From Candidatus Latescibacterota bacterium (GTDB taxonomy: Bacteria > Latescibacterota > UBA2968 > GCA-2709665), in NCBI GenBank assembly GCA_965222075.1, contig OZ244937.1, positions 288,001-352,000 of the forward strand: 64,000 nt of DNA, in the 5' to 3' direction. A model generated the notes under the pieces. The model saw only the letters and a list, made by a program, of their open reading frames with translations, made no database searches and was not told the DNA's origin. This document shows, in pieces, positions 9,039 through 57,150 of this stretch (position 1 is its first letter; every line of letters begins with the position of its first letter). Made by a program: the position numbers and the translations under genes.

Positions 9039-9756
9039 ATGGTGGTGATTCCGGCGGGCCGTTTTCGGATGGGCTGTGTATCCTTTAGAGACTGCAGGGA
9101 CAACGAGCTGCCGGTGCGCGAGGTGGCGATCCGATCATTTGAACTGTCGAAGTACGAGGTGACGTTCACGGAGTACGATCGCTTCTCGGCAGCGACGGAT
9201 CGCGAGCGGCCGCACGACAGAGGCTGGGGCCGGAGATGGCGTCCGGTGATCGAGGTTTCGTGGAAGGACGCGGTGGCGTGTACACAGTGGCTGTCGTCGG
9301 AGATGGGCAAGAGCTACCGTTTGCCGAGCGAGGCGGAGTGGGAGTATGCGGCCTGCCTGTCCGAGGGACGCAGGCAGGCGCGTGCGGGCTCGGTGACGAA
9401 GTATAGTTGGGGGAATGAGATCGGTCGCACACCAGGCCAATTGCGAGGGGTGCGGCAGTCAGTGGGACAATGAGAAGACGGCATCGGTGGGTTCGTTCGG
9501 CCCCAACGCCTGGGGCTTGTACGACATGCACAGCAACGTGTGGGAGTGGGTGCAGGACTGCTGGCACGCCAGTTACCGGGGCGTGCCAGCGGACAGGTCG
9601 GCCTGGGAGAGCGGCCATTGCTCGGGTCGCGTGTTGCGCGGCGGCTCGTGGTTCAACTTACCCAGGTACCTCCGCGCCGCGTACCGCAGCAGGTTCACCA
9701 CCGACGTCCGCAACAACATCGACGGTTTCCGTGTTGCCCGGACGCTTACCCCTTGA
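9039..9756 (+). pseudogene. FGE-sulfatase (SUMF1/CLec-fold) protein, frameshifted near 9430
   Basis: MVVIPAGRFRMG, KYEVT, YRLPSEAEWEYA, NAWGLYDMHSNVWEW, RVLRGGSW and GFRVAR motifs split over two frames. Confidence 0.9.
9352..9378. mobile_element. 27-nt CCTGCCTG hairpin insertion, in frame in FGE gene
   Basis: CCTGCCTG-tcc-gag-gga-CG-CAGGCAGG; removal restores EWEYAARAG. Confidence 0.9.
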
Positions 9757-9812
9757 ATCCTTACTTCTTTACCTCCCTCCCTGCCAGCAACTTTTTGGCA
9801 GAGAGGGGGGTT

Positions 9813-9835
9813 CCAAGGGGGCATCGCCCCCCTGG
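9813..9835 (+). other. GC-rich hairpin downstream of the DGR-like variable region
   Basis: CCAAGGGGG-CATCG-CCCCCCTGG, about 57 bp after the stop codon. Confidence 0.6.
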
Positions 9836-9845
9836 ATGTTTTTGC

Positions 9846-9975
9846 CTTCGTGCCCAATGATCGTCCGTTTCGCGCCGACATGGTTGATTCGATAAAAGTT
9901 GCGATTCGCCATATTCAGACCTTCTATGCCGATCAGATGCAAGTGGCGGGCTACGGCAACAGAACCTTCCGCCAC
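9846..9975 (+). pseudogene. Fragment paralogous to the metallopeptidase region of 19725-24347
   Basis: FVPNDRPFRADMVDSIKVAIRHIQTFYADQMQ versus FLPNDRPFRADVVDSMKTMIRRIQKFYAEQMQ. Confidence 0.8.
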
Positions 9976-9993
9976 ACTTCCTAACAAAAGGGA

Positions 9994-10203
9994 GTGGGAG
10001 AGGATTTGTCGGCGAACGCGGCCTTGAAGGCGCTGGGGACGATCAAGCTGGTGGAGTGCGAGACGGAGGAGGGAACCAAGCAGCGCATCGTGACGCGAGC
10101 GTTCCGAGCAGGCGGTCAAGATCTTGAAGACGCTAAAGATCATGCGCCGTGTTCAGCCTCGTCCATGCCGCCTGCCAGTCACGGCGACAGCCGCTTGGGG
10201 TGA
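9994..10203 (+). pseudogene. Possible transposase C-terminal remnant (IS1634-like)
   Basis: LSANAALKALGTIKLVE tail resembles IS1634-type C-termini. Confidence 0.35.
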
Positions 10204-10341
10204 GAAAAAACCCCGTGTTGATCGCAACAGACTTAAGCGGCCAACCGTCATACACGGGCTAAGGTGAGCTTGAATAACATCTTAGGATATACATCTTCGC
10301 CCCCAAAACAGTGCAGGCCAGTAACGGGATAGCAAAGGATT

Positions 10342-13300
10342 ATGCCAGTGAAAGTGACCGATGAAGTCGTATCTAAGGACGACCCTGGCCGTCGAGGTCA
10401 GATCATTCGGGGGCCACGCAAGCGCTCCGACGGAAATGTCTTTCTCATACGTTGGGACGATAACACTACCAGTTGGGCACCGGAGTACTCGTTGGTAGTC
10501 GCGAGCGAAGAGTCTGAAGACCCCTTTGAACTTCTAGAAAAAAAACGCTTCGGCAGGGCAAACGATCTGCGCCGCAATCTCACGTTTATCCAGCTTAGCG
10601 GGAGGCTGGCCAATGTCGTATACGGCATGGACACAACGAACACCGAGTTCCTGCCGTACCAATACAAGCCCGTACTCACCTTCTTAGAATCTCCCTCGAA
10701 GGGGCTTCTTATTGCTGACGAGGTAGGGCTGGGAAAAACTATTGAAGCTGGCTTGATCTGGACCGAACTTCGCGCCAGATACGACGCACGCCGACTCGTC
10801 GTCGTTTGTCCTGCAATGCTCCGTGACAAGTGGAGTCTTGAGCTTGCAAACAGGTTCGGTGTCGACCCGGTCCAACTGAACGCTGCCGAACTCGCAGATG
10901 AGCTTCATAAGAACAAGAACGATACTCCAGAGAATAAAGGATTTATATGCAGCCTACAGGGGATAAGACCGCCGACAGGGTGGAGAGACAAGCAACTCGC
11001 AAACGGCCGGATTCGCCTGGCTAGACGGCTGGACGAGTTGACGGAATTAGAGCCCGCCATCGACCTATTGGTCATCGACGAAGCACATTACATGCGCAAC
11101 CCGGAGACACGTAGCGCGGCACTAGGAAGGATGCTGCGTGAGGTGAGCGAGCACATTGTCTTGCTATCGGCGACGCCGATCAATAACCGCGAGGACGACC
11201 TGTACCAACTCCTACGGCTGATTGACCCTGATTCATTTTACACGCGTGACCTCTTCCCACAGGTGCTGTCTGCAAACGAGCCACTGCTGCGCGCCCGCAA
11301 TCTTGTACTCGACCACCGGTCCACTGGCACGGAGATTACCAACGAACTCCGCGTCGCGATGCGCCACCCTCTACTCGTAGAGAACCGCCAGCTTCAAGGA
11401 CTTATCAAGGAGAACTTCGACAAACATTTTCTTGAAGAGCCAGGCAACCGTGTAGGTATCGCAAATCGCATTGATCGTATCAATCTATTGCGGCACACGA
11501 TCAATAGAACGCGAAAGCAGGAAGTCGAAGAGTGGAAGGTCATCCGTGAGCCACATGACCATTTCGTGGATTTAGATCCCGACGGGCCGGAGTGGGATTT
11601 TTACCATAAGGTCACGCATTCCATCAGATGTTATGCGTTTGAGCAAGGTATCAGCGACGGGTTTCTGCTATCGACTCCGCAGCGCCAAATGGCGAGCTGC
11701 ATGTACGCCGCTGCCAAGAGTTGGCGGGACACTTCTTCGCTCAAAGATGTGCCAAATCTTATTTATGAAGACCTCGGTGACCTCCGTAAGGCCGATACAA
11801 ATCCCGAAGATGCGCGTCCTTTGATCGAGCACATCGCCACAGAAGTGTTGCCTGGTTTCGACTTTGAAAGGCTGAAGGCAGAAGATTCCAAGTTCGACGC
11901 ATTTAAGCGCATAGTACACGAGTATCTGGACAGCAACCCAGGCGAGAAAGTTATCGTTTTCTCGTACTTCAAGGCCACCTTGCACTATCTTGAGGAGCGC
12001 TTCTCGTACTTAATGGTCCCGGTACAGGTTTTGCATGGCGGCGTCATGGAGAACAAACAAGAAGCTCTCAACCGATTCCGAGATGGAGATACACGAATCC
12101 TTCTCACTTCCGAGGTCTCAAGTGAGGGTGTTGACCTTCAGTTCTGCAGTTTCATAGTCAACTACGATTTACCTTGGAATCCGATGAAAATCGAGCAGCG
12201 TATCGGCCGTATCGACCGCATCGGGCAAAAAGCCGACAAGGTGTTGATCTGGAATCTCGGCTACGCCAACACGATCGACGAGCGGATCTACATTAGACTC
12301 TTGATCAAGCTCAAGATCTTTGAGCGCGCGTTGGGTGGAATGGAAGTCGTACTGGGTGAGAAAATCTCCGAACTGACAAGTGATTTGATGCGCCTGGAAC
12401 TCACACCGGAGCAAGAGGAAGAACGCATTGACCAAGCATTCATGGCCATCGAGAACGTGAAGAGACAACAGGACGAATTGGAAGCGAAGGCAGCCCATTT
12501 GATTGCCTACGGGGATTACATTCTCGAGCGGGTGAAGGCGGCGCACGAGTTTAAGAGACGCATTACGGATGAGGACCTCAAGGCGTACGTCAAAGACTAT
12601 CTCGACCGTCATGCCAAAGGTTTCGTCTTCACGGAAAGTGATAAGGATCCCCTGACGGTCGATATTCGGCTCTCGCCGAATCTTGCAACCCGCTTTGACG
12701 ACTTTGTCCGTCAGTCGCGCCTCCAAGGGCAGAGCCGCTTAACCTACGGGCGTACAGTACGATGCCAGTTCTGGAACAAGATCGATCGATTCACTCCCCA
12801 GAGAGAGATCGTCAGTCAGTTTCATCCCTTTGTCCGCTTCATCAGCCAAGAGCTACGGGAGCGCGCGGAGAAATTCTGTCCGCTTGTAGCGCTTACCGTG
12901 CCCAAACGAGCAGCACCGTACTTAACAAAGAGCACGTACGCATTCTCTGCGAAGCGCTGGTCGTTCAGCGGCCTGAGGACCGACGAGGAACTTCACGCGC
13001 GTGCGATCAACATAGAAAACAGCGACGATAATCTCGATTCGGATCAGTCTTGGGACCTGGTGAACGCAGCGAAAGTGGAAGGCTCCGACTGGTTGTCGAT
13101 TGCTAACGACATCGACGACATCGACAAGATAGCGTGCATCTTCGATAAGTGCGATATTCAACTAGAAAAAGACTACGCAATCACCAAACGCGACCGCAGG
13201 AACGAAAATGATGATCGGGTAGCGTTTCAGATTCAGACTGCAAGTCGGCATCGAGACCGTCTTCTCAAATCCCAAAACGAGCTTCTTGCACGTTACCGAG

Positions 13301-13455
13301 AACAAAACCAACAGCGGCTAATTCCGATGACAGAGGGACGTATCCGGTCAATCGAGAGGAAGTTCGAAAATCAAATTGAACGATTTCATCAACGGGGACA
13401 GATGTCAGCATCCGTCGCCGACATCTGCTACGGGATAATCCGGGTCACAGACTGA
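10342..13455 (+). CDS. SNF2/RapA-like SF2 helicase
   Basis: LLIADEVGLGKT, VIDEAH, LLSATP, EGVDLQ and YDLPWNPMKIEQRIGRIDRIGQ motifs. Confidence 0.93.
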   Translation: MPVKVTDEVVSKDDPGRRGQIIRGPRKRSDGNVFLIRWDDNTTSWAPEYSLVVASEESEDPFELLEKKRFGRANDLRRNLTFIQLSGRLANVVYGMDTTNTEFLPYQYKPVLTFLESPSKGLLIADEVGLGKTIEAGLIWTELRARYDARRLVVVCPAMLRDKWSLELANRFGVDPVQLNAAELADELHKNKNDTPENKGFICSLQGIRPPTGWRDKQLANGRIRLARRLDELTELEPAIDLLVIDEAHYMRNPETRSAALGRMLREVSEHIVLLSATPINNREDDLYQLLRLIDPDSFYTRDLFPQVLSANEPLLRARNLVLDHRSTGTEITNELRVAMRHPLLVENRQLQGLIKENFDKHFLEEPGNRVGIANRIDRINLLRHTINRTRKQEVEEWKVIREPHDHFVDLDPDGPEWDFYHKVTHSIRCYAFEQGISDGFLLSTPQRQMASCMYAAAKSWRDTSSLKDVPNLIYEDLGDLRKADTNPEDARPLIEHIATEVLPGFDFERLKAEDSKFDAFKRIVHEYLDSNPGEKVIVFSYFKATLHYLEERFSYLMVPVQVLHGGVMENKQEALNRFRDGDTRILLTSEVSSEGVDLQFCSFIVNYDLPWNPMKIEQRIGRIDRIGQKADKVLIWNLGYANTIDERIYIRLLIKLKIFERALGGMEVVLGEKISELTSDLMRLELTPEQEEERIDQAFMAIENVKRQQDELEAKAAHLIAYGDYILERVKAAHEFKRRITDEDLKAYVKDYLDRHAKGFVFTESDKDPLTVDIRLSPNLATRFDDFVRQSRLQGQSRLTYGRTVRCQFWNKIDRFTPQREIVSQFHPFVRFISQELRERAEKFCPLVALTVPKRAAPYLTKSTYAFSAKRWSFSGLRTDEELHARAINIENSDDNLDSDQSWDLVNAAKVEGSDWLSIANDIDDIDKIACIFDKCDIQLEKDYAITKRDRRNENDDRVAFQIQTASRHRDRLLKSQNELLARYREQNQQRLIPMTEGRIRSIERKFENQIERFHQRGQMSASVADICYGIIRVTD

Positions 13456-13470
13456 GATAGGAGAAACTTC

Positions 13471-27225: not shown

Positions 27226-29652
27226 ATGAAAAAATGGATTTTTCATCTCACCGCACTAACCGGATTGAATGTTTGCATTTTCGCGTTGCTCTATCTCTTG
27301 TGTGCGGGCGATGCCTCTGCTCAGCAAATCCAGACGCCTGCTCCGCCGAGCATGGACGGTGATTTTCAGACGTGGCATTTGCCCGAAGGTGCCCTCGCCC
27401 GCCTGGGCAAGGGAGCCATTGGTGAAGGCGACCGGGCGGTGGCGCTTTCGTCTGACGGGAAATATCTCGCCGTGGCCAGTGGCGTCGGCGTGTGGCTGTA
27501 CGAGATGGCGACGTCCCGTGCCCTGGCGCTGCTACCCACTGCGAGTCCAGTCTATTCGGTGGCGTTTTCGCGCGGCACCATGCTCGCTTCGGGTTTGGTC
27601 AATGGCAGGATTGAGCTATGGGAGGTCAAAACGGGCACGCGGATTGCCATCTTTGAAGGGCGCAGGTGGGTTCGAGTTACTTCGGTGTTGTTTTCGCCTG
27701 ATGGTGCCACTCTCGTTTCCGGCTCTTATGATGGCGCGGTCAGGCTGTGGGATGTGGCGTCCCGAAAACGCATCGCCACCCTGGAAGGGCATACAGAGCA
27801 GGTCACTTCGGTGTCGTTTTCGCCTGATGGTGCCACTCTGGCTTCCGGGTCGCAGGATAAAGCGGTCAAGCTGTGGGATGTGGCGTCCCGAGAAGAGGTC
27901 GCTACCCTGGAAGGGCACTGGCATTTGGTCAGTTCGGTGTCGTTTTCTCCCGATGGCGACATTGTTGCTTCCGGGTCGTGGGATCGCACGGTCAGGCTGT
28001 GGGATGTGTCGGCCCGCGAAGAGATCACTACCCTGGGGAGGCACAGTTCTATTATCAGTTCGGTGTCGTTTTCGCCTGATGGCGCCACTCTGGCTTCCGG
28101 GGGAAGGGATCACACGGTCAGGCTGTGGGATGTGGCGTCCCGAGAAGAGGTCGCCACCCTGGAGGGGCATACGTATCGCGTCAATTCTGTGGTGTTTTCT
28201 CCTGATGGGACCACTCTCGTTTCCGGGGCAGCGGACGGTATGGTTCTGCTGCGGGATGTGGAGACGGGAAATGTCGCCAGGCTCTCCGGGTATATAAGTG
28301 TCAGCTCGTTGGCGTTTTCTCCCGATGGGACCACTCTGGCTTCCGGCTCTAATGATGAAACGATCAAGCTGTGGGATGTGGCGTCCCGAGAAGAGGTCGC
28401 CACCCTGGAGGGGCATACGTATCACGTCAATTCTGTGGTGTTTTCTCCCGATGGGACCACTTTGGCTTCCGGCTCTGAGGATGAAACGATCAAGCTGTGG
28501 GACGTGGCGGCCCGAGAAGAGGTCGCCACCCTGGAGGGGCATACGTATCGCGTCAATTCTGTGGTGTTTTCTCCCGATGGGACCACTTTGGCTTCCGGCT
28601 CTGAGGATGAAACGATCAAGCTGTGGGATGTGGCGACCCGAAAAGAGATCGCCACCCGGAAAGGGCACTGGTATGGAGTCAATTCTGTGGTGTTTTCTCC
28701 CGATGGGACCACTCTGGCTTCCGGGGGAGGGGATGGCACGGTCAGGCTGTGGGATGTGGCGTCCCGAAAAGAGGTCGCCACGCTGGAGGGGCATAGGAAT
28801 AGGATCAATTCTGTGGTGTTTTCTCCTGATGGGATCACCCTCGCTTCGGGGGGATCGGATCGCACGGTCAGGCTGTGGGACGTGGCGTCCCGAAAAGAGA
28901 TCGCTGCCTTTGAAGGGCATACGGATGAGGCCATTACGTCTGAGGTCAATTCTGTGGTGTTTTCTCGCGACGGGACCACTCTGGTTTCCGGCTCTTATGA
29001 TGGCGCGGTCAGGCTGTGGGATGTGGCGTCCCGAAAAGAGGTCGCCACTCTGGAGGGGCATACGGATGGGGTCATTTCTGTGGTGTTTTTGCCCTATAGG
29101 ACCACTCTGGTTTCCGGCTCTTATGATGGTACGATGTTGTTGTGGGATATGTTGCCGTACATCACCTCATGCACGCCGAGGCCGCCGGTGAAAATCTACG
29201 GCGACAAACAGGAAGGAATGGTCGGAACCGCTTTGGCCAAGCCGTTTGTCGTTTGGGTGTTGGATGAGAAGGGGGCGGCGTTTGAAGGCGTGCCGGTCTC
29301 GTTTGCTGTGACTGCAGGTGGGGGGAGGCTCTCTGTTGAGACCACGGTGACGGATGCGAATGGTCGAGCATCGAGCACGCTGACGCTTGGGAGTGAACCA
29401 GGCACAAACACCGTTGTGGTAAGGGTTGCAGGAACTGAGGAGACGGCGACCTTTGTCGCAGAAACTTTAGCTATGCCCGACTTTGACGGCGATGGTGCGG
29501 TGGGTTTTTCCGACTTTTTGCTGTTTGCCCAGCAGTTCGGGTTACGTCAAGGCGATGCGGGGTATGACGCGCGGTATGATCTGGATGGGGATGGGACCAT
29601 CGGGTTTGGGGATTTTGTGATTTTTGCCAAGGCCTTCGGGAAAGAAGGTTGA
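27226..29652 (+). CDS. Secreted WD40-repeat protein + Big_1 + dockerin/EF-hand-like tag
   Basis: Signal peptide; many 42-aa WD repeats; same GGAGCAGGGGCCA leader as 19725. Confidence 0.9.
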
Positions 29653-30041: not shown

Positions 30042-30279
30042 AGGGAAATGACTCCGCAGTGATGATAGGAGAGTAGATCCATGAAACCCCCCGTTCTTTG
30101 TATTGCAGATCGAAAATTTATCGTATTGAACGTGATGTGTGACTTTAAATAGGAGAAAGGAGGTCTTAAGGCTACCTTGTAAGTATCACCAAAACGAGGC
30201 AGCCAACCCCCAACAGGAGGGACCTCCAAATGTATAATTTAGAACTATTCGTCATCGCTGTCTACTGTTTAATTGCCGA

Positions 30280-30312
30280 CCTGCCTGCCGCGCGGTGCTT
30301 GGCGCAGGCAGG
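30280..30312. mobile_element. 33-nt CCTGCCTG hairpin insertion
   Basis: Removal restores IADELYP. Confidence 0.88.
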
Positions 30313-30804
30313 TGAGTTGTATCCCAACTTCTGTCAAAGATATGGCCCCCCCCGTCGGGCAGGCTTTTCACCAACCCTGAGTGATGCGGAATGCCTGACG
30401 ATTGAAATCGTTGGACAATTTCTGGGCTATCCCAATCAAAAGCAACTCTTTGAGCGGATGCGTGAGCGCTTCGGCACCTGGTTTCCAGATCTAAAAGAGA
30501 GGGAGGCCTTTGTGCGCCAATCGGCCAATCTTTGGCAGGTCAAAGCCATTTTACACCAGCAGTTGGTGGAAAGGTTAGGTGGCCATCACGCCCCCTGTCA
30601 GATCATTGATACCCTGCCCGTTCCCATCTGTCACCTGGCACGGAGGTGGAGGCGAAAAATCTTCAAAACAGACCCCGTCTTTGATTTTCCAGACCCCACC
30701 AAGGGCTACTGTGCGGCCAAAAAGGAAGCATACTTTGGCTTCAAAGGGGGACTGCGGATCACAAAGGATGGCCTGATTGTTCACGCGCCGCTGTTGCAAG
30801 CCTA

Positions 30805-30837
30805 CCTGCCTGCAGCGCAGGGCACTGCGCAGGCAGG
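30805..30837. mobile_element. 33-nt CCTGCCTG hairpin insertion
   Basis: Removal restores LQAYGHD. Confidence 0.88.
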
Positions 30838-30894
30838 TGGTCATGACTCAAAGTGCCGCGACCAACTTCTGGAGGGAGTGCAACCCGATACCTT

Positions 30895-30921
30895 CTTGCC
30901 TGCGCGCAGCGCGCAAGCAGG
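30895..30921. mobile_element. 27-nt hairpin insertion (CTTGCCTG..CAAGCAGG)
   Basis: Removal restores DTFVLGD. Confidence 0.85.
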
Positions 30922-31095
30922 TGTGTTGGGCGATACCGCTTTTTTGGATCTAAACTGGCAGGAAGCGTGTCAAAAACGCCATCAGGTGCGGGTTTTAACC
31001 CCCATCAAATCCAATATGAAGCCAACCCCACAGCGCAAACCCTTTATACTATCTGGGGTGGGAAAAACCCTGCGACGGTTGATTGAAACCGTCTA

Positions 31096-31122
31096 CCTGC
31101 CTGTGCGTTGCACGCAGACAGG
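31096..31122. mobile_element. 27-nt hairpin insertion (CCTGCCTG..CAGACAGG)
   Basis: Removal restores IETVYAQL. Confidence 0.88.
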
Positions 31123-31223
31123 TGCACAACTGACCCAACGCTTTCAGGTGGCCAGAATGAGGGTGCGCGATGCCTGGCACTTCAGAACCTCTGGACCACC
31201 AAAATCTTAGCGCATACAGTCTG

Positions 31224-31275
31224 CCTGCTTGCCTGTCTGCCTTCGGCACAGGCAGGCGCGCTGCGCGCAGGCAAG
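31224..31275. mobile_element. Nested hairpin pair (27 nt + 25 nt)
   Basis: Removal restores HTVCVFLN; outer unit is the exact reverse complement of 30895-30921. Confidence 0.85.
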
Positions 31276-31420
31276 CGTGTTCCTCAATATCCAGCTGCAA
31301 CGAGATCCCTTAGATTTTGAGGGACTCGTCCGATTCTAAAAAAAGTCTCACATGACGTTTGCTTCTACTACAACACAATTGCCCATCAATCGTAACTGAT
31401 TGTGGGCTTGTTCGTTTTAT

Positions 31421-31456: not shown

Positions 31457-31647
31457 TTTTTCGTTCCCGCCTTACAACTTTTCCTATAACTACATTTATA
31501 AACAGGAAGTTATAAAATTCCTTCCGCATGGACTTGTTCTCCGGAGGGGTTTTTGCGTTGCATTTTGCGACAATTTCCAAAATTCCCGCTGCTCCCATAT
31601 TCTGCCTAACTCGTTCAATGGAAATGAGTTAGGCAGATTTTTGAGAT

Positions 31648-31664
31648 TTGGCACACATTTTGCA
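31648..31664 (+). promoter_or_regulatory. Sigma-54 (-24/-12) promoter
   Basis: TTGGCAC-ACATT-TTGCA matches TGGCAC-N5-TTGC. Confidence 0.7.
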
Positions 31665-31696
31665 TGTACAGTTGAAAAGATCGTGCCATCCATATC

Positions 31697-31807
31697 CCTG
31701 TCTGCCTGCTTGCCTGTCTGCCTGCTTGCGCGCTGCGCGCAGGCAAGCGTGCAACGCACAGGCAGGCGCGCTACGCGCAGGCAAGCGTGCGGTGACGCAC
31801 AGGCAGG
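31697..31807. mobile_element. Four-deep nested hairpin stack (30+27+27+27 = 111 nt)
   Basis: Four left arms followed by four stem + right-arm units; removal restores AIIDMDGT. Confidence 0.92.
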
Positions 31808-31973
31808 GATGATGGCCTGTTGGAAAAAGGTCTCATCCCGGGTCTTCCAGACTTTCACCCGAGCCTGATTGATGGCTTCCTGAAGATCGAGGATATCATC
31901 CTGCTTGAAACGATGCAGCAAATCGCCTGCGGTAGAGGGAGCAGGCAACCGTTCAACCTCAAGCGCATCCCTG

Positions 31974-32006
31974 CCTGCCTGCAGCGCGGTACGCCGCGCA
32001 GGCAGG
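31974..32006. mobile_element. 33-nt CCTGCCTG hairpin insertion
   Basis: CCTGCCTG-cagcg-cggta-cgccg-CG-CAGGCAGG. Confidence 0.85.
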
Positions 32007-32251: not shown

Positions 32252-32311
32252 CCTGCCTGCCCGCCTGCGCGCTGCGCGCGGGCAGGCGCCGGACTACGGC
32301 CGGCAGGCAGG
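32252..32311. mobile_element. Nested hairpin pair (33 nt + 27 nt)
   Basis: CCTGCCTG[CCCGCCTG-CG-cgc-tgc-gcg-CGGGCAGG]CG..CAGGCAGG. Confidence 0.85.
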
Positions 32312-32776: not shown

Positions 32777-35104
32777 ATGTCTTCAACATCTTCGCTGTTC
32801 AGAAAAGTTCTAATGATGCGGAAGGTTCCTTCTCTTGTCCATTTAAAGTCACACATTACGTTCGTATTGATTGTAGCCATTGGCGCGATGGCCCTGCTGG
32901 CCACCGTCGAAACGGCACAGGCAGTTCCAGGTCAACCTGACAGACCGACACTTTTTGTTGATTACGATGAGGATGTTGTTGACAACTACATAGGCGCCTA
33001 CGCTGAGTTGACCGCTACGACCAACTCTGTCTCGGGTGCTGCGCGATACGAGTGGGATCTCCTGCGCGGGACGGTTTCAACAACGAGACCATCGGTAACC
33101 AGGGGCGTTTTCGTATCTGACAGCATTGCCACGGCGTCGGTCAAAGTGCGTGCGGTCGATAGCGAAGGCAACGCAGGTCAGTGGAGCAGCACAGCGTCAA
33201 CCAATATTTATTTCGCTCCACGTCCACCTATGCCGACCTTGAGCTTCGACGAAGAAGATAAGACCATTACCATATCGGTTTACGGGTACAGAGGAGCAAC
33301 GGAATACACAATCAAAATCACCGCCCCGGGCGGTAGTAAAACCAGAAAGACAGTCACCGATACGGTGTACGCCTACTCCGTGCCTTTGTCTGATCCATCA
33401 GGGACCTGGAAGGTCAGCGTGCAGGCCACGACAGCTACTCACCGTACCGCCTTCTCACGCACCGCATTATTGGCTGTGAAGGTTCCGGAACAGCCCGTCG
33501 AACTTTCGGCTGAAGCCGGCAACGGCCAGGTGACGCTTACCTGGAAGGATCCGGGCGATTCTGGTATCGCCAAATACCAACTGCAAGTGGACCACGGCGA
33601 GTGGACCGATATTGAGGGCAGCGACGCCGGCACGACCAGCCACACGGTTACGGGGCTCACCAACGGTACCAGGTATCTCTTTCAAATCCGTGCGGTGAGC
33701 AACAGCGGCGCGGGCGAGGCGTCCGACAGGGTGTTGGCGACGCCGGTGGCGTTACCGAAACCGACCGGGCTTGCCGCAACGTCCGACGACGGCCAGGTGA
33801 CGCTTACCTGGAAGGATCCGGGCGATTCTGGTATCACCAAATACCAACTGCGAGTGGACTACGGCGAGTGGACCGATATTGAGGGCAGCGACGCCGGCAC
33901 GACCAGCCACACGGTTACGGGGCTCACCAACGGTACCAGGTATCTCTTTCAAATCCGTGCGGTGAGCAACAGCGGCGCGGGCGAGGCGTCCGACAGGGTG
34001 TTGGCGACGCCGGTGGCGTTACCGAAACCGACCGGGCTTGCCGCAACGTCCGACGACGGCCAGGTGACGCTTACCTGGAAGGATCCGGGCGATTCTGGTA
34101 TCACCAAATACCAACTGCGAGTGGACTACGGCGAGTGGACCGATATTGAGGGCAGCGACGCCGGCACGACCAGCCACACGGTTACGGGGCTCACCAACGG
34201 TACCAGGTATCTCTTTCAAATCCGTGCGGTGAGCAACAGCGGCGTAGGCGAGGAATCGGACACCGTGTTGGCGTACCCGGAACCGGTTCCGGAGTTGGCG
34301 GCATCCGTACCGTCTTCGCTGACGGAGGCGACGCTGCATGGAAGCGTGGTGACGCTGAGATTGACAGGACGATCCTACTTGAACGCGGTCAGAAATAACG
34401 TGACGGTATCGGGCATTGAAGGTGTAACGTTCAGGTCGTCAACCGATGTGGATCGCGTGAGCGATACGGAGGTTACGGTGAAGCTGACGTTCAACGGCAA
34501 TATTGATTCCGATACGATGCTGGTGTTCACGGTGGGGGCAAGTGCGATAGCGGGCTATACGGGTCCCGCGCTCACGGCGGAGATTCCGGTCACTGCGGTG
34601 GCCGAATCGGTGGTCGCATCGGCTCCACAACCGTTGACAGAGGCGACGCTGCATGGGAGCGTGGTGACGCTGACGCTGAGCGGCGGCGCTTACGAGCGTT
34701 GGAACACGGTGAGAAACAACGTGACGGTATCGGGCATTGAAGGTGTAACGTTCAGGTCGTCAACCGATGTGGATCGCGTGAGCGATACGGAGGTTACGGT
34801 GAAGCTGACGTTCAACGGCAATATTGATTCCGATACGATGCTGGTGTTCACGGTGGGGGCAAGTGCGATAGCGGGCTACACCGGTCCGGCGTTCACAGCG
34901 GAGATTCCGGTCAGTGCTGACGAGGAAGCGGCGCCCGACTTTGATGGCGATGGGAGGGTTGATTTTTTCGACTTTATTCGCTTTACAGCCGTATTCGGGT
35001 CGAGTCAGGGCGATGCGAGGTACGACGCGCGGTATGATCTGGATGGGGATGGGACCATCGGGTTTGGGGATTTTCTGATCTTTGCCAACAGCTTTGGCAA
35101 ATAG
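32777..35104 (+). CDS. Secreted fibronectin type III repeat protein with dockerin/EF-hand-like tag
   Basis: VTLTW..YQL..TVTGLTNGTRYLFQIRA three times; C-terminal PDFDGDG..DLDGDG. Confidence 0.88.
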   Translation: MSSTSSLFRKVLMMRKVPSLVHLKSHITFVLIVAIGAMALLATVETAQAVPGQPDRPTLFVDYDEDVVDNYIGAYAELTATTNSVSGAARYEWDLLRGTVSTTRPSVTRGVFVSDSIATASVKVRAVDSEGNAGQWSSTASTNIYFAPRPPMPTLSFDEEDKTITISVYGYRGATEYTIKITAPGGSKTRKTVTDTVYAYSVPLSDPSGTWKVSVQATTATHRTAFSRTALLAVKVPEQPVELSAEAGNGQVTLTWKDPGDSGIAKYQLQVDHGEWTDIEGSDAGTTSHTVTGLTNGTRYLFQIRAVSNSGAGEASDRVLATPVALPKPTGLAATSDDGQVTLTWKDPGDSGITKYQLRVDYGEWTDIEGSDAGTTSHTVTGLTNGTRYLFQIRAVSNSGAGEASDRVLATPVALPKPTGLAATSDDGQVTLTWKDPGDSGITKYQLRVDYGEWTDIEGSDAGTTSHTVTGLTNGTRYLFQIRAVSNSGVGEESDTVLAYPEPVPELAASVPSSLTEATLHGSVVTLRLTGRSYLNAVRNNVTVSGIEGVTFRSSTDVDRVSDTEVTVKLTFNGNIDSDTMLVFTVGASAIAGYTGPALTAEIPVTAVAESVVASAPQPLTEATLHGSVVTLTLSGGAYERWNTVRNNVTVSGIEGVTFRSSTDVDRVSDTEVTVKLTFNGNIDSDTMLVFTVGASAIAGYTGPAFTAEIPVSADEEAAPDFDGDGRVDFFDFIRFTAVFGSSQGDARYDARYDLDGDGTIGFGDFLIFANSFGK
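33524..34260 (+). repeat. Three near-identical 267-bp FN3 units
   Basis: GGCCAGGTGACGCTTACCTGG at 33524, 33791 and 34058. Confidence 0.92.
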
Positions 35105-51730: not shown

Positions 51731-51751
51731 GTTGCTTCCGGATATTGATGT

Positions 51752-51838: not shown

Positions 51839-51854
51839 GGAATATGGTTCATAA

Positions 51855-51906: not shown

Positions 51907-52661
51907 CAAAATACGCCACACCTCTGCTGGAGAACAAATCGTAATATCGCCATGCCAACCCTGCCGGCGTTTCCGATAACCGCGACAGATAGAAACAGCA
52001 GGAGCGCGCTCCAGACAATCGTGAAGTCCCGCATCCTGCTTCTATATCGGGCACCCGAACCCGGTGCCCCGTAGAGCAGGACTGCGGTAAACCAGACAAG
52101 AAGATATGTCGAGAATTTAATCAGATACAGATACGAACCCCAGGGCGTCCTTGCCTCGTACATCACCTGGGAAGCCGCTGTCAGGGCGATAAACACCCCC
52201 CCCACGCCCAGCACTCTGTAATCGAATTTACTGATGCGAATAGACCACCCCTTCGCCAGCGCGTCTATCAGTGCACAGACAAAAGCAATCCCGGCCAGCA
52301 GAACGCTTATCCCGAAGTACGAAGACAGATGATACTCCGGAGATCCCTTCCCCAGCTTTGCCGTAACCGGCTCGAACTGGGTCATAACGAACATGAACCC
52401 CAGAGCCAGCAGGCGGGGAAAGTAACTCCACGCCCAGATATGGTCGTCATCATCAGCATCAGGCTGCCCATCACGCTCATCGGAATCAGCAGGAGACTTT
52501 ATCCATTTGAGGAAAAGAGAACGATGTTTTATCCCGATATACCAGAGCCCGGCGGTAGCAGCAGCCACCAGGACCGTGTTCCACCAGGTGAGCCTGAAGA
52601 CAGCCTCCAGAGCCCATATCAGCAAAAGGATCAAACAGACGCTGGCTATTCGTGCGTGCAT
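51906..52661 (-). CDS. Hypothetical polytopic membrane protein
   Basis: About 7 hydrophobic segments from MHARIAS; AAGGTGA RBS. Confidence 0.65.
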   Translation of the reverse strand: MHARIASVCLILLLIWALEAVFRLTWWNTVLVAAATAGLWYIGIKHRSLFLKWIKSPADSDERDGQPDADDDDHIWAWSYFPRLLALGFMFVMTQFEPVTAKLGKGSPEYHLSSYFGISVLLAGIAFVCALIDALAKGWSIRISKFDYRVLGVGGVFIALTAASQVMYEARTPWGSYLYLIKFSTYLLVWFTAVLLYGAPGSGARYRSRMRDFTIVWSALLLFLSVAVIGNAGRVGMAILRFVLQQRCGVF

Positions 52662-52672
52662 TTGGTCACCTT

Positions 52673-53815
52673 CTATTTTTCGCGCACCGCCAGCCGCACT
52701 TGCTTCGGTTTGACGTCGAGGACCGTCAGATCGGTCGTGTGGCGTACGGACTCTGAAGACACCTTGAAGGTTCTGCGCCCCAATGGAACGAGCCTGGCGT
52801 CGATAACGAGCCGAAAATCCACCCGGCGCGCCAGCAGCAGCGCCCGCCGAGGCCCGGACACGGTTACATCCACCATCGCGGGGCTGACACCCTCCAGCAC
52901 ATAGCCCTGCGGTATATTCTCCACCGTCACCCTCACCGGATGCGTCGATTTCTGGACCGCCGCGCCCGGCACCAGGACCAGCCACGCGCCGAAGGCCAGC
53001 GCAAAGGACAAAAGCCCCTCCACGAGATGCCGTCCCAACCGGCCCCGCTCGACCCGGCGGGCACCCACCCCCACGCGCTTCGAGTGGTCCTGCACCCTGG
53101 CCAGCAATGCGTCCGGATCGTCCAGAATCTCGAGTCGGCCTTGCGCCGCGATGGTGATCGTGCCGCGCTCCTCCGAAACCACCAGGCACAGGGCATCGCT
53201 GCGCTCGGCCAGGCCCAATGCCGCGGCGTGGCGCGTGCCCCCCGCCCCCAGTTCGTCGCGGTTTTCGGAAAGCGGCAAGTACACGGCAAAGCGCTCGAGC
53301 CTGTTTTCGCGCATCACCAACGCGCCGTCGTGTCCGTCCGAACTGGGGTCAAAGAGGCTGTCTAAAAGCTCCTCGCTGATCGCCGCTTTCAGCAAGACCC
53401 CGCCTTGCAAGTACCGCTCCACCGGATCGCGTCCCGGCAGGACCACCAGGGCTCCATGCCGCTTCGCGGCCAGCTGGTGCAAGCTCCGAACCAACACCCC
53501 CAGACTGCCACCCCCGGGCTGCGAGGCCCTCCGGCGCAGACCCAACGCGGCGATCTGCTCGAAAAGCCGCCGCAGATCGTCCTGGAAAACCACCACGACC
53601 ACCACGACCAGCACCGCGAAAAAACCCTGGAAGATCCAGGCCGTCAGCTGCAGCTCGAATTGCCGCGCCAGCAGGTAGAAGATACCCAAAAAAGCCAGGC
53701 CCAGCAGTGCCATCCGCGCGTGCATCCGGCGAGTCCAGGCCACCAGGCCCCAGAGCAGCAAACCGACTACCACGATGTCGACGAGGTCGGTGAGTGCGAT
53801 GTCGAGTAGGGTCAT
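52673..53815 (-). CDS. dacA: Diadenylate cyclase (CdaA-type) with YbbR-like C-terminal domain
   Basis: Three TMs; VFQDDLRR; HDGA; GTRHAAA; VVSEERG. Confidence 0.9.
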   Translation of the reverse strand: MTLLDIALTDLVDIVVVGLLLWGLVAWTRRMHARMALLGLAFLGIFYLLARQFELQLTAWIFQGFFAVLVVVVVVVFQDDLRRLFEQIAALGLRRRASQPGGGSLGVLVRSLHQLAAKRHGALVVLPGRDPVERYLQGGVLLKAAISEELLDSLFDPSSDGHDGALVMRENRLERFAVYLPLSENRDELGAGGTRHAAALGLAERSDALCLVVSEERGTITIAAQGRLEILDDPDALLARVQDHSKRVGVGARRVERGRLGRHLVEGLLSFALAFGAWLVLVPGAAVQKSTHPVRVTVENIPQGYVLEGVSPAMVDVTVSGPRRALLLARRVDFRLVIDARLVPLGRRTFKVSSESVRHTTDLTVLDVKPKQVRLAVREK

Positions 53816-54153
53816 GTCCAAAAATAATCCGGTCGCCAGAAGGAAACAATGGGGGACTGGGGGGAGGATGTGCCAATACCCACGTTGTCGTAGCACCGAA
53901 ATATGGGTAATATTTTACAATTCGTCAAGACCATCTGGACAGGTATCTGCTGCGGGCGGAACGGCTGATAGCAGAAAAAGACTATGGTGCCGCTCCGGAG
54001 GCGCTGGATAAGGTCGTCGCTCTGCTGGCTGGTCTGGAGCACCCACGCTGGAGCCGTTTTCTGCTATGAATTTTACATTGATAATAGAACCAGGGTTGGC
54101 TATATTTTACACGATTACCGTGAAATCGATAAAAGTTAAAAGAAGAACACTTC

Positions 54154-54265
54154 ATGACTGAATCATTTGGAGACCCTGCAACAGAAGATTTATTTCATAA
54201 CAGACAAACGCGACGCGCCCGCAGCTTTCCGCCGGATATTGTACGCGCCGCTTTAAGGAAATTAT
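54154..54265 (+). pseudogene. HigB-like toxin N-terminal remnant
   Basis: SFGDPATEDLF..PPDIVRAALRKL, then similarity ends. Confidence 0.65.
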
Positions 54266-54290
54266 CTATAACAACCCGTTTTTGTACAGG

Positions 54291-55502
54291 ATGTTGCAGA
54301 TGCTATTCTCCGGTATTCAAGGGAAGCCGGAAGATGCCCCGCCGGCCAAGACGCTTCCGGGGATATCGAATGTCCTCTCGGGTCGGTTCAGCGTCGGCGA
54401 ACTCCAAACGATTGATACCAGCGCGCTTCTGGGACGAGAGGAGGTTGTTCTAAATCTGGATGCGGTCGCCGACTACCTGAAAGAGAAGAAGGTTCTGGTT
54501 ACGGGGGCGGGGGGGTCTATCGGGTCGGAGCTTTGCCGGCAGATTGTGACGTACAATCCAGCGCTTTTGATTATGCTGGGAAGGGGTGAGAACAGCATTT
54601 ATGAGATCGAGAACGAACTTGGGGGTGAATGCGGGCAGGTGACCCTTGAAACCGTGATTGCGGATACCATAGATTGGGACAAGGTGGACCGGGTTTTTGC
54701 AGATTACCGTCCCGATGTGGTGTTCCACGCAGCAGCGCATAAACATGTGACCCTGATGGAACGGCATCCGGACGAGGCCGTGAAGAACAATGTGTTTGGC
54801 ACGCTGAATGTGGGGCGGGCCGCTCGAGACCAGGGCGCATCTGTTTTTGTACTGATTTCCACGGATAAGGCCGTGAACCCCGAGAATGTGATGGGGGCGA
54901 CCAAGAAGGTGGCCGAGATGATCGTTCAAGACCTTGCCAGAGCGGGAAAGACGAAGTTTTTGGTTGTGAGGTTCGGGAATGTGATCCGGAGCCGGGGGAG
55001 TGTGATTCCGCTGTTTGAAAAACAGATCCGGAACGGCGGGCCGGTTACGATCACCCATCCGGAAGTAACGCGGTATTTTATGAGTATATCCGAAGCCGCG
55101 CATCTGGTCCTCCAAAGCGGCGCCGTGGCCGATAGGGGGAGTATCTGTGTGCTGGATATGGGGGAACCTGTCAGAATTTTGGACCTGGCCCGAAATCTGA
55201 TCCGCATGGCAGGCCTGCGGCCCGATGAAGATGTTCGAATTGAGTTTACAGGACTCAGGCCGGGCGATAAACTGGTTGAGGAACTCCTGACGAGCAGAAA
55301 AAATATGAAGGCAACCAGGTTCGAGAAAATTTTTTTAGATGAACCCGATCAGGTGGGGGGCAAAAAGTTACACGATGGTTTGAAAAAGCTCGAAGCGTGT
55401 GTTAAAAGGTTCGACCGTTCCGGCACGATTTCTCTGTTGCAGGAGATTGTCCCCACCTACAGGGTGCAGCATTCCGATTCGGTTTCTGAAAAGAGAGGGT
55501 AA
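54291..55502 (+). CDS. CapD-like nucleotide-sugar 4,6-dehydratase (no N-terminal TM region)
   Basis: VTGAGGSIGSEL, HAAAHKHV, ISTDKAV, RFGNV and GLRPGDKL motifs. Confidence 0.88.
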   Translation: MLQMLFSGIQGKPEDAPPAKTLPGISNVLSGRFSVGELQTIDTSALLGREEVVLNLDAVADYLKEKKVLVTGAGGSIGSELCRQIVTYNPALLIMLGRGENSIYEIENELGGECGQVTLETVIADTIDWDKVDRVFADYRPDVVFHAAAHKHVTLMERHPDEAVKNNVFGTLNVGRAARDQGASVFVLISTDKAVNPENVMGATKKVAEMIVQDLARAGKTKFLVVRFGNVIRSRGSVIPLFEKQIRNGGPVTITHPEVTRYFMSISEAAHLVLQSGAVADRGSICVLDMGEPVRILDLARNLIRMAGLRPDEDVRIEFTGLRPGDKLVEELLTSRKNMKATRFEKIFLDEPDQVGGKKLHDGLKKLEACVKRFDRSGTISLLQEIVPTYRVQHSDSVSEKRG

Positions 55503-55593
55503 ACGAATCCGATAGGTACTATTGTCTCTGGCCGAATTGTTCGCCGTTTGGTCCATGAGATTCGGAAGACCGATGAAGCGGCGCTCCGTTTCA

Positions 55594-55656
55594 CCTGCCT
55601 GCGCCGGATGCCCTGCCTGCGCCGAGTTCTGCTCGGCAGGCAGGTCGGCAGGCAGG
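55594..55656. mobile_element. Nested hairpin pair (30 nt + 33 nt), intergenic
   Basis: CCTGCCTG-CG-ccgg-atgc[CCTGCCTG-CG-ccgag-ttctg-ctcgg-CAGGCAGG]tcgg-CAGGCAGG. Confidence 0.9.
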
Positions 55657-55680
55657 TTCACTGTTTGACGGGTCAGACAA

Positions 55681-57150
55681 GTGAGCAGAAGATTCGAACC
55701 GATTGACCTCTCGCGTGTCCGAACCTTTCCCCTTTCGGAACGCCCCGGCAAGGTCTCTCTGGCCGGCTTCGCCACCCCGCCACAGGCGGGCGTCTCGTTC
55801 GGTGGTTTCTTAAGGGGGCTGCCGGAGATCCTGATCGGCGCGGAGTTCCGGAGCTTTGTCCGGGACCTTTCAGCGGCGGTTCGGGCGGAGAAGACCGTGG
55901 TCGCCGGGGTCGGCGGTCACGTGATTAAGTGCGGTCTTGCCCCTCTTCTTATCGATCTGATGCGCCGCGGGTGGGTCTCCGCCCTTTGTATGAACGGCGC
56001 AACGGCTATCCATGATGTTGAAATCGCGATGTGCGGCAGTACCTCCGACCTGCCTGCAGCGCAGGACGCTGCGCAGGCAGGGGACGTCTCCGCAGGGTTA
56101 GGGGATGGCTCCTTTGGCATGGCCAGGGAGACCGGCACGTTTATAAACGGCGCGATCCGGGACGCACCGGAGGGCTATGGGGCCACGCTGGGCCGCAAGA
56201 TCGTGGAGGCGGACCTCCCCTACAGGGAGCAGAGCGTGCTGGCCACAGCGTCTGAACTGGGGCTTACGGCAACGGTTCACGTGGCCGTTGGCGCCGATAT
56301 CGTCCACCAGCATCCCTCGGCCGACGGTGGAGACATCGGGCGGGCGTCATTCGAAGATTTCCGCATCTTCTGCGCCGTCGTCGCCAGCCTCCAGGGGGGG
56401 GCTTACATCAACATCGGATCGGCTGTACTCCTCCCGGAGGTCTTTCTCAAGGCCCTCACGGTGGCCCGCAACCTGGGGCATGGCGTTGCGAATTTTGTCA
56501 CCGCCAATTTCGATATGATTCAGCACTACCGCCCCCGGGTCAACGTGGTGGAGCGGCCCACCCTGGGCGGGGGCCGGGGCTATACCTTCACCGGCCACCA
56601 CGAACTCCTCATTCCCCTCCTGGCACAGTCCCTGCACGAGGCGCTCGAAGATCGGGCCGCGGCTGCCGAACGCAAAGTCGTCTCTTTGGACGAGGCCCTG
56701 GCCATTCGGGACCGCATGCGCGACATCGGCGCTACCGTCATTTTTACCAACGGCTGTTTCGATCTGCTTCACCAGGGCCACGTCACCTACCTGCAGAAGG
56801 CCCGTTCGCTGGGCGATGTGCTGATCCTGGGACTCAACAGCGACGATTCCGTCGGCCGCATCAAGGGCGCCGGCCGGCCTATCCTCCCCCTGGAAGACCG
56901 CGCCAGGGTGCTCGCCGGGCTTGAAGCGGTCGATTACATCTGCGTCTTCGCAGAGGATACGCCGCGTAATCTCATCCAGGCCCTCCTGCCTGACGTTCTT
57001 GTGAAGGGAGGGGACTATAAGGTGGATGAAGTCGTCGGACGAGAGGAGGTTGAGGCCGCCGGAGGCCGGGTGACCACGGTTCCGTTCGTCAAAGGCTGTT
57101 CCACGACGGATATTGTACAGCGGGTGCTCAAGACAGGGAGAGAGAGGTGA
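55681..57150 (+). CDS. Fusion: DHS-like-fold domain + heptose-1-P adenylyltransferase (RfaE domain II)
   Basis: GGHVIKCGL..GSAVLLPEVFLKA..GHHE; C-terminal FTNGCFDLLHQGH, GLNSD and VKGGDY. Confidence 0.8.
   Translation: MSRRFEPIDLSRVRTFPLSERPGKVSLAGFATPPQAGVSFGGFLRGLPEILIGAEFRSFVRDLSAAVRAEKTVVAGVGGHVIKCGLAPLLIDLMRRGWVSALCMNGATAIHDVEIAMCGSTSDLPAAQDAAQAGDVSAGLGDGSFGMARETGTFINGAIRDAPEGYGATLGRKIVEADLPYREQSVLATASELGLTATVHVAVGADIVHQHPSADGGDIGRASFEDFRIFCAVVASLQGGAYINIGSAVLLPEVFLKALTVARNLGHGVANFVTANFDMIQHYRPRVNVVERPTLGGGRGYTFTGHHELLIPLLAQSLHEALEDRAAAAERKVVSLDEALAIRDRMRDIGATVIFTNGCFDLLHQGHVTYLQKARSLGDVLILGLNSDDSVGRIKGAGRPILPLEDRARVLAGLEAVDYICVFAEDTPRNLIQALLPDVLVKGGDYKVDEVVGREEVEAAGGRVTTVPFVKGCSTTDIVQRVLKTGRER
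56049..56081. mobile_element. 33-nt CCTGCCTG hairpin insertion, in frame in a core gene
   Basis: CCTGCCTG-cagcg-cagga-cgctg-CG-CAGGCAGG; removal restores GSTSEDVSAGL. Confidence 0.9.

Follow-up and report, generated by a model that had tools for sequence, protein, structure and literature searches.

Short hairpin-forming units in a Latescibacterota genome as a probable family of miniature insertion elements

The stretch of DNA analysed here (the window) comprises 64,000 nucleotides (nt), i.e., bases 288001-352000 of the single 5.36-Mb contig (59.3% G+C) of a Latescibacterota genome (contig OZ244937.1; genome label G000), and part of it is also contained in RNA libraries whose run-table label is sponge metagenome. 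In the raw sequence and after peeling off nested units from the innermost outwards, 17 hairpin units of a few tens of nucleotides were resolved in it, situated in genes, in gene remnants, in intergenic DNA and within one another. Comparisons with orthologues, homologues, paralogues and strains, together with the nesting, show that these units are insertions, and with a probability of about 0.8 they constitute a non-autonomous miniature insertion element mobilised in trans, similar to repetitive extragenic palindromic (REP) elements and small dispersed repeats (SDR) and devoid of the tag of the former. An original prediction, made from the letters of the window, had described such a family of hairpins and located its members; all its unit coordinates proved correct. 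The units and their principal carriers are as follows (positions of the window):

9352..9378: 27-nt unit inside the FGE-sulfatase-family open reading frame (ORF) 9039-9473, read as CLSEGRRQA between EYAA and RAG
30230..31343, plus strand: transposase pseudogene of the insertion sequence (IS) family IS982, with six units and a 1-nt frameshift near 31190
30280..30312: 33-nt unit in this pseudogene, adding LPAARCLAQAG after IAD; common to the homologues P0002 and P0003
30805..30837: second 33-nt unit of the IS982 gene, with the extra residues LPAAQGTAQAG behind QAY; among the homologues, only P0002 has the same
30895..30921: 27-nt unit of the IS982 gene, arms CTTGCCTG/CAAGCAGG, extra residues LPARSAQAG; only in the window copy
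31096..31122: 27-nt unit of the IS982 gene, arms CCTGCCTG/CAGACAGG, extra residues LPVRCTQTG; common to P0002, P0003 and P0008
31224..31275: nested pair, 27-nt host (31224-31231 + 31257-31275), entered after its position 8 by a guest of 25 nt (31232-31256)
31697..31807: four-deep nest of one 30-nt unit (31697) and three 27-nt units (31705, 31713 and 31721-31747)
31974..32006: 33-nt unit in a remnant ORF, preceded by an extra CCTG
32252..32311: nested pair, 33-nt host (32252-32259 + 32287-32311) with a 27-nt guest (32260-32286) that has CCCGCCTG/CGGGCAGG arms
55594..55656: intergenic nested pair, 30-nt host (55594-55611 + 55645-55656) with a 33-nt guest (55612-55644) in the host loop
56049..56081: 33-nt unit in the intact conserved gene 55681-57150, which encodes 489 amino acids (aa); TSE|DV becomes TSD-LPAAQDAAQAG-DV

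Only the 56049 unit interrupts an apparently intact conserved gene in the window, the protein of which exhibits a cytidylyltransferase-like C-terminus, whereas the other 16 units are distributed over the IS982 pseudogene (six), a second transposase-like remnant (five), a frame-split paralogue of the FGE-sulfatase family (one) and intergenic DNA (four). Concerning the nests, the pair at 31224, 52 nt in total, disrupts the frame of the IS982 pseudogene at TVC|VFLN. In the nest at 31697 (111 nt in total), each guest is situated directly after position 8 of its enclosing unit, and the nest as a whole is in frame within the minus-strand transposase-like remnant ORF (31496-31948). The pair at 32252 is located just upstream of a response-regulator gene or at its N-terminus, and the P0002 copy of the 31096 unit holds a further nested insert. 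The identities between units in opposite orientation that had been pointed out are exact: the 31096 unit is the reverse complement of the one at 31713, and the 30895 unit that of those at 31224 and 31721.

A strict pattern (both 8-nt arms, 9-17 nt apart) matches six times in the window, compared with a mean expectation of 0.00 in 100 dinucleotide-preserving shuffles. Throughout the genome, a scan of which the original prediction had proposed, a degenerate pattern gives 242 matches versus 3 in the reversed, uncomplemented genome, and a looser, orientation-symmetric pattern combined with peeling gives 328 units versus 30 in the reversed-sequence control, recovered in four rounds (287+36+4+1). 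These units occupy 283 places, of which 246 are single, 32 double, 2 triple and 3 quadruple, and neighbouring places are clustered (28 neighbours at a distance of at most 150 nt versus 2.2 expected).

The commonest lengths are 33 nt (106 units) and 27 nt (90), followed by 30 (27), 25 (18) and 36 nt (18), within a range of about 21-36 nt. The sizes of 27, 30 and 33 nt originally given are right insofar as 250 of the 328 units are multiples of three, but members of 25 and 31 nt also exist. In general, a unit consists of an outer stem of 7-9 bp (CCTGCCT/AGGCAGG or T/C variants), a 2-nt bulge, an inner stem and a loop of 3-5 nt. All 36 distinct oriented 33-mers with CCTGCCTG/CAGGCAGG arms fit one plan (7+2+6+5+6+7), i.e., in order, an outer arm of 7, a GC bulge of 2, an inner arm of 6, a loop of 5, an inner arm of 6 and an outer arm of 7 nt. 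Within their inner stem, 187 of 216 cells are Watson-Crick paired, versus 30-57 in registers shifted by one or two, and covariation is found at two positions with two or three Watson-Crick pair types (GCAGCG/CGCTGC, GCCGAG/CTCGGC, GCCGCG/CGCGGC, GCCGTG/CACGGC); the sequence of the loop varies freely. Among the 27-nt units, one family with CCTGTCTG and CAGGCAGG arms comprises about 113 copies in both orientations together, and another with CCTGCTTG and CAGGCAAG arms about 22 copies. All units carry CCTG/CAGG-type sequences at both ends and lack a GTAG/CGTC tetranucleotide tag, and the common units exhibit zero stop codons in any reading frame. An Rfam scan of the cluster at 29.5-33 kb returned no family, the only match being a sub-threshold one to a miRNA (E=0.66). 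Mismatches in the stems occur on both strands; G-T wobbles as a sign of one functional strand were dropped, the outer stem containing 12 T-G versus 10 C-A mismatches. An extra CCTG, the tetranucleotide of the arm, stands ahead of three units (window 31970-31973; genome 1230585 and 3119316), which may be due to slippage or represent a boundary variant.

That the units are insertions is seen most clearly at 56049. The orthologues of the 489-aa protein comprise ten Latescibacterota-type records with 63-93% identity, and all ten are without the 11 residues and read TSE-DV, as had been expected of empty sites. In the DNA of the two closest records (L007 and L008), the difference is a single 33-nt gap at TCCGA|GGA. 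Since the flanking bases (A and G) differ from the end bases of the unit (G and C), the boundary cannot be shifted, and no base is duplicated. The same locus also occurs in both states among near-identical strains: a 9444-nt contig from run X9 covers 55627-56048 and then continues with 56082-57300, thereby omitting exactly the 33 nt (with ends CC..GG) and exhibiting only two other differences in 1641 nt, whereas in run X5, which belongs to another study, contigs run into the unit from both sides. The insert is thus polymorphic between near-identical strains, and the presence of sequences with and without it had been anticipated.

Concerning the IS982 transposase (30230-31210), the window copy has no close paralogue in the genome, and protein homologues were compared for this reason. 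There are 438 database homologues, typically of 312 aa, and the four extra segments of the window copy (11, 11, 9 and 9 residues) are absent from eight of 11 aligned homologues. The remaining homologues share inserts to a different extent (P0003 two, P0002 three and P0008 one), and P0002 and P0008 possess two further inserts at other positions. In Pfam, nothing is found in the interrupted protein, whereas its homologues carry PF01609/PF13612.

Paralogous empty sites were sought by joining the flanks of each of the 242 matches and searching the genome with them, a gap-free alignment with at least 85% identity and at least 25 nt on each side being demanded. A match across the junction was obtained for 57 of the 242, including 20 gap-free filled/empty pairs; in 13 of these pairs the 6+6 nt at the junction are identical, and in 18 the ambiguity of the boundary is 0-2 nt per side. 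In the best pair (filled at genome 4120107, empty at 4093271-4093390), 120 of 120 flanking bases are identical. The 9352 unit likewise has gap-free paralogous empty sites in the genome, e.g., at 556439-556544. Finally, the nests testify to insertion in their own way, as removal of the guest restores a host unit that is found intact elsewhere in the genome.

The proposed insertion from arm to arm without target-site duplication (TSD) is therefore borne out by the exact junction at 56049 and by the 20 paralogous pairs. The arms could pass as inverted repeats of 8-9 bp, but a fixed-length TSD, as expected of miniature inverted-repeat transposable elements of the DDE type, is lacking at the exact 56049 junction. 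It is scarcely credible that the peptides are ancestral and were lost elsewhere by hairpin-mediated precise deletion, or that the units are assembly or adapter artefacts: palindromes are prone to deletion, and the strain polymorphism alone gives no direction, but ten of ten orthologues down to 63% identity and eight of 11 IS982 homologues are without the inserts, the same units stand in hundreds of unrelated contexts, and they are seen in independent assemblies, in 20 runs of eight studies and in RNA-library contigs. Of the findings named beforehand as fatal to the idea of insertion, none turned up, i.e., distant orthologues do not carry the peptide, independent runs and assemblies do carry the inserts, and no duplication exists at the junctions.

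At 164 distinct sites, a purine (R) is found at position -1 in 146 and a pyrimidine (Y) at +1 in 138 cases, T never occurs at +2, and A occurs at -2 only five times. The commonest target pairs are G|C (60) and A|T (34). The flanks had been described as varying, which is correct as far as many flank pairs exist, but they are not free, and the target is an R|Y preference and not a fixed site such as the 5' target of IS200/IS605-type elements. As a consequence of this preference, the palindrome often extends by one pair, namely by exactly one and no further in 45% of the sites versus 19% of random junctions. With the bulge used to orient the sites, there is a tendency to Y-C/G-G/T-G in the 3' flank, where the commonest 4-mer is TCGG. 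The sole features of the 5' flank are R at -1 and a scarcity of A at -2, and its commonest 4-mer, CCGA, accounts for 23 of 264 half-sites.

These target data bear on the possibility of a double-strand recombinase (e.g., an IS607-like serine transposase) that would use the arms as minimal inverted repeats and exchange strands at a central GC. With G|C as the commonest target, with joined ends that give a palindromic CAGG|CCTG with GC at its centre, and with the lack of strand bias reported below, it has some points in its favour; however, 104 of the 164 sites are not G|C, and at 56049, where the A|G site is unambiguous, the break must fall precisely between two bases and a 2-nt overlap does not suit, such that we regard it as improbable.

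Concerning guests within units, 41 host units were available, in which the guest is situated after host position 8, at the mirror position, in the inner stem or in the loop, and never inside the outer 7 nt of either host arm. Such positions would be expected if the target were read in the folded state, although the sample is small and the arms contain few R|Y steps. Outside the window, a dispersed repeat of about 250 nt, of which about 42 copies exist (genome 4093226-4093495; also, e.g., 881398, 3238882 and 3772437), constitutes a hot spot for units. Nine of its 35 usable copies contain the same 33-mer in the same orientation and at the same site, and these nine are scattered on the tree of the repeat (9 changes versus a shuffled mean of 8.2; approximately unbiased test against a single clade, p=4e-5), which could have come about by insertion or precise excision, either of them repeated, or by gene conversion. 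The repeat itself has an internal inverted repeat TGGCCTTTTTCTTG...CAAGAAAAAGGCC.

In-frame insertion into genes had been emphasised by the original prediction. The test by the longest ORF is uninformative, since ORFs of 150 codons or more take in 93.6% of random positions, and a codon-usage log-likelihood score trained on long ORFs was used instead. According to this score, 55 of 177 isolated units are coding and 122 non-coding, compared with 79% coding and about 21% non-coding among random positions (n=3000). Genes thus contain fewer units than expected, a depletion shared with REPs, and the family is predominantly extragenic. The emphasis on in-frame location in genes is too strong, as most isolated units are non-coding and those of the window lie mostly in pseudogenes or intergenic DNA. 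Of the 55 coding units, 48 are multiples of three, and a stop is introduced by none of these 48. Since 93 of the 122 non-coding units have such lengths as well, the three-fold length characterises the family as a whole and is not only the result of a filter at each site. The coding units are unevenly distributed over the three reading phases (32, 14 and 9), with x-L-P-A...Q-A-G as the favoured frame, often after a GA| codon start, and the translated inserts amount to 9-12 residues of the types LPA..QAG, PAC..AGR or CL..RQA.

The excess of non-coding copies over random positions, the clustering of places, and the many copies carried in the ~250-nt repeat and in IS remnants would suit structural signals useful to the host that spread by duplication or gene conversion of their carriers. 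Such an origin is nevertheless very improbable in view of insertions with unique context in conserved and phage genes, the 164 different flank pairs, the nesting, the lack of a sense/antisense bias and of an Rfam family, and the strain-level empty allele in a single-copy gene.

At the level of the transcript, a 172-nt contig from an RNA library spans 55995-56166 and contains the whole insert with zero differences, DNA carry-over being possible in such libraries. This contig, with the same proviso, as well as the three-fold lengths and the absence of stops in coding copies, which suggest translation, leave next to no room for a removal of the hairpins from the transcript in the manner of mini-introns, with proteins unaffected, for which the stable hairpin alone would speak. 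An AlphaFold model of the 489-aa protein has a mean predicted local distance difference test score (pLDDT) of 45.9, with residues 1-167 below 50, and is too poor around the insert for its assignment to a surface loop or otherwise.

The strict 33-mer, for which zero control matches exist in any of 168 genomes of the phylum, is found in 20 of these genomes. Within the family to which the window genome belongs, 15 of 21 other genomes carry it with counts of 1-75, compared with 79 in the window genome and 5 in a relative of the same genus, whereas beyond this family only four of the 168 genomes are carriers, with 1-4 copies each. The dominant variant differs by genome; in G003, for example, most of the 74 copies belong to one variant. 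With 100% identity, the 33-mer at 55612 recurs at many places of G002, G003, G009 and G021, which represent genera with orthologous genes only 73-81% identical to those of the window.

Units also exist in viral and metagenomic sequences. In IMG/VR, 16 contigs match; two of these (L112 and L120) carry four units each and contain tailed-phage head modules (portal, prohead protease-capsid fusion), the units being situated inside the open ORFs of the prohead protease-capsid fusion (807 aa, L112:7655-10078, and 811 aa, L120:9071-11506). The insertion context of both recurs in L119, which stems from another metagenome. Among the metagenome matches listed (n=80), 33 loci contain a 33-mer whose inner stem has 4 pairs or more, and more than one unit is present in 16; the G+C content of the listed contigs ranges from 0.40 to 0.70. 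If viral and metagenome matches listed are taken together, 38 of the 96 outside loci have an inner stem of at least 5 pairs, and among those 38 listed loci, five have ORFs with more than 60% identity to the window genome. The family reaches well beyond the lineage of the window, and phages are plausible carriers of the units.

The reading preferred here, i.e., a miniature insertion element mobilised in trans, agrees with the original proposal, which was that of a minimal element, non-autonomous and a source of added LPA..QAG or CL..RQA peptides, and with which orthologue, paralogue, strain and homologue comparisons concur; that movement occurs in trans, by an enzyme encoded elsewhere, is what we infer. 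Such an enzyme would recognise the folded or inverted-repeat arms and would cut and join at the foot of the stem. The whole unit enters between two adjacent target bases, preferably purine|pyrimidine, with none lost or duplicated. Non-coding DNA, genes and other units serve as targets; in the latter, entry takes place at the bulge, at the junction of the stems or in the loop and never in the outer stem. As the units are mostly multiples of three and free of stops, copies in genes are read through and can persist in working genes. Junctions that are seamless and lie at the base of a hairpin with a conserved bulge fit a structure-specific single-strand nuclease/ligase best, and a hairpin-specific nuclease or transposase for single-stranded DNA of the HUH/Y1 kind is our leading guess for the enzyme, a tentative one that the odds do not favour.

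The window genome possesses one intact IS200-type TnpA gene (2071937-2072296), one broken copy thereof, and one intact Y1 gene of 256 aa (3242104-3242871) similar to REP-associated tyrosine transposases (RAYT). No units were found within 6 kb of the IS200 TnpA copies or of the RAYT-like gene in this genome, and the hairpins at the ends of the IS200 copy are unrelated to the units. In the relatives, RAYT-like genes of class 1 are bracketed by GTAG-tagged repeats of their own in the manner of a classical REPtron, whereas RAYT-like proteins of class 2 are without the catalytic tyrosine. A strong match to a RAYT-like profile exists in 14 of the 22 genomes of the family, among them all 11 with at least three strict units, and the eight genomes without such a match have 0-2 units, the cut having been chosen after seeing the data and the genomes being kin. 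Three genomes (G014, G015 and G017) possess the RAYT-like gene and yet only 0-1 units.

If the units were mobilised by a RAYT-like transposase (Y1/HUH) that acts on the single strand in its folded form, they would constitute a true REP family. The co-occurrence just described (with its post hoc cut and the kinship of the genomes) points in this direction, as does a unit situated 9 nt past the stop codon of the RAYT-like gene in G021, and bulged hairpins with TSD-free junctions fit HUH chemistry. In contrast, the class-1 genes have their own GTAG repeats, the gene of the window genome has a CTAC hairpin and class 2 has no tyrosine, the units lack a GTAG/CGTC tag, three genomes with the gene have hardly any units, there is no replichore bias, and no Y1 gene lies near the units in 96 outside loci. 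This identification appears possible but unlikely, and units flanking a cognate RAYT gene, as in a REPtron, were not found.

Several observations weigh against the preferred reading or loosen parts of its support. No candidate mobilising gene is tied to the family among the Y1 and RAYT-like genes tested; RAYT-like genes are accompanied by other hairpins (GTAG/CTAC), and a unit stands beside the gene at one of eight loci only (G021, L099). Counts of Pfam Y1_Tnp do not follow those of the units (G004 with 32 matches and 0 units, G038 with 75 and 0), and no Y1 homologue is contained in 576 kb of the 96 unit-carrying outside loci. No orientation bias by replichore, as defined by cumulative GC skew, was found (21+/22- and 26+/29-), nor a bias by transcription strand (22 sense, 19 antisense), and the types of mismatches in the units are not strand-specific; the missing strand bias and the mismatches on both strands argue against the lagging-strand mechanism of IS200/IS605 and against a role at the RNA level. 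The polymorphism between strains is compatible with insertion or with precise excision and cannot separate the two, the scattered filled copies of the ~250-nt repeat are also explicable by gene conversion between copies, and the division into coding and non-coding units depends on a classifier of our own and not on a gene finder. The HUH/Y1 lead of the original prediction has thus gained no specific support from gene neighbourhoods, outside loci or strand bias, and of the co-occurrence it had suggested looking for, Y1_Tnp counts give no sign and the RAYT-like pattern is post hoc. Among 33 intervals of 250-3500 nt bracketed by units, the longest ORFs are ordinary genes and IS fragments, and tblastn with Y1 queries gave no match.

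The RAYT-like genes exhibit some further features. That of the window genome (L108:1138-1905) differs from its relatives in an extra segment of 22 residues, which separates the HxH motif from the tyrosine motif. Just downstream of the gene stands a hairpin with a CTAC tag, corresponding to a GTAG REP in reverse complement, and a similar motif occurs within the extra segment. This CTAC motif is rare in the window genome (3+1 copies of the 13-mer). In L098-L102 (G009, G021, G020, G002 and G018), the RAYT-like genes of the REPtrons adjoin a large helicase gene and are bracketed by several GTAG stem-loops of the GTAGGGCAGGGATGCCCTCG type, and a conventional GTAG REP family coexists with the CCTGCCTG family in the relatives. 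RAYT-like domains are also found within open frames of 1200-1441 aa (G002:C2:164046-170352, G003:C1:3070581-3072665, G020:C1:1912803, G021:C1:4547700), which may be fusions or read-through of neighbouring genes.

Among known systems, the SDRs of heterocystous cyanobacteria are probably closest to the units in behaviour. They were reported by Elhai and colleagues in 2008 as dispersed elements of 21-27 nt that are proposed to be mobile; they are reportedly nested in other repeats, with no known mobilising enzyme. The likeness lies in size, dispersal and nesting; the phylum is another one, and the sequences are presumably unrelated. RPE-1, a Rickettsia palindromic element (RPE) of about 100-150 nt restricted to Rickettsia, is likewise an in-frame, translated palindrome, but three to five times longer than the units (21-36 nt). 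IS200/IS605 elements possess two different subterminal hairpins, a fixed tetra- or pentanucleotide 5' target and a replication-strand bias; they share with the units the TSD-free, seamless, hairpin-based insertion, whereas their two hairpins, fixed target and strand bias are missing in the units. The mobile GC clusters or hairpins in the mitochondria of fungi, sponges and placozoans are short GC-rich palindromes, sometimes situated in coding sequence, and are similar to the units in being proliferating palindromes; they differ in belonging to an organelle, in their unrelated sequence and in their sizes.

Despite the general similarity to REPs, which are the nearest class described, there are also differences from them. 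According to Di Nocera et al. (2013, PMC3733652), REPs are stem-loops of 20-40 nt with bulges and G-T pairs that vary strongly between strains; those in ORFs encode extra residues (O. terrae; RPE-4 and RPE-6 of R. conorii), and CGTC REPs have no dedicated transposase. Compared with that description (PMC3733652), the units are likewise GC-rich imperfect stem-loops in high copy number (328 versus 30 in the control), with covarying stems, several subfamilies per genome, strong variation between related genomes and mostly intergenic location (122 of 177), and unlike REPs they have no GTAG/CGTC tag, no REPtron and symmetric CCTG.../...CAGG ends. They are furthermore mostly single (246 of 283 places) and not inverted dimers, they nest inside one another, and exact TSD-free junctions as well as strain-level empty alleles are documented for them here. 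The RAYT-linked REP doublets (REPINs; Bertels and Rainey 2011, PMC3116915) are similar in that both are miniature non-autonomous palindromes with bursts of single variants and a supposed movement in trans by a single-copy domesticated Y1 enzyme; in contrast to these, the units act as singlets, and the RAYT-like genes carry other repeats. An inverted doublet is not the rule among the units, since multiple places are nested and only 12 neighbours lie within 60 nt. The open-access literature searched (for the arm sequences, for palindromes of Latescibacteria and for intragenic REPs with RAYT) contains no account of the family, the arm sequences being met with only in primer or repeat papers of no relation to it. 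It is an untagged variant of the REP/SDR kind and not a new category. The more far-reaching view that, among self-defined mobile DNA with recent insertions proven, the units are the smallest, moved by a mechanism outside the known transposase classes (with neither tag, TSD nor strand bias, and with other hairpins entered in their unpaired parts only), borne by phages across lineages, and with a length and stop-free sequence evolved for survival in genes, seems rather unlikely.

To our knowledge, no mechanism of REP-like movement has been demonstrated in vivo, and the base-exact boundaries, the R|Y preference, the hot spot and the nesting restricted to unpaired positions provide clean material on it. 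Filled and empty alleles between strains that differ at about 0.1% of their bases make insertion or excision measurable in natural populations, and the defined 33-nt unit is a substrate for biochemistry. With a length that is a multiple of three and no stop in any frame, the unit would be a selfish element that limits its own cost, and the small peptide insertions, including those in phage capsid proteins, are a minor but real source of protein variation. For annotation, it is of importance that inserts can mask domains, as the blank Pfam result for the interrupted IS982 transposase illustrates.

Some observations concern other genes of the window. The FGE-sulfatase-family gene at 9039-9756 consists of two overlapping frames near 9415-9473, and is either a decaying paralogue or affected by a sequencing indel; several FGE-sulfatase paralogues without a hairpin unit exist in the genome. 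According to the translations of their ORFs, a large WD40-repeat protein (27226-29652) and a large fibronectin-III-repeat protein (32777-35104) terminate in similar calcium-binding, dockerin-like tails (DFDGDG...).

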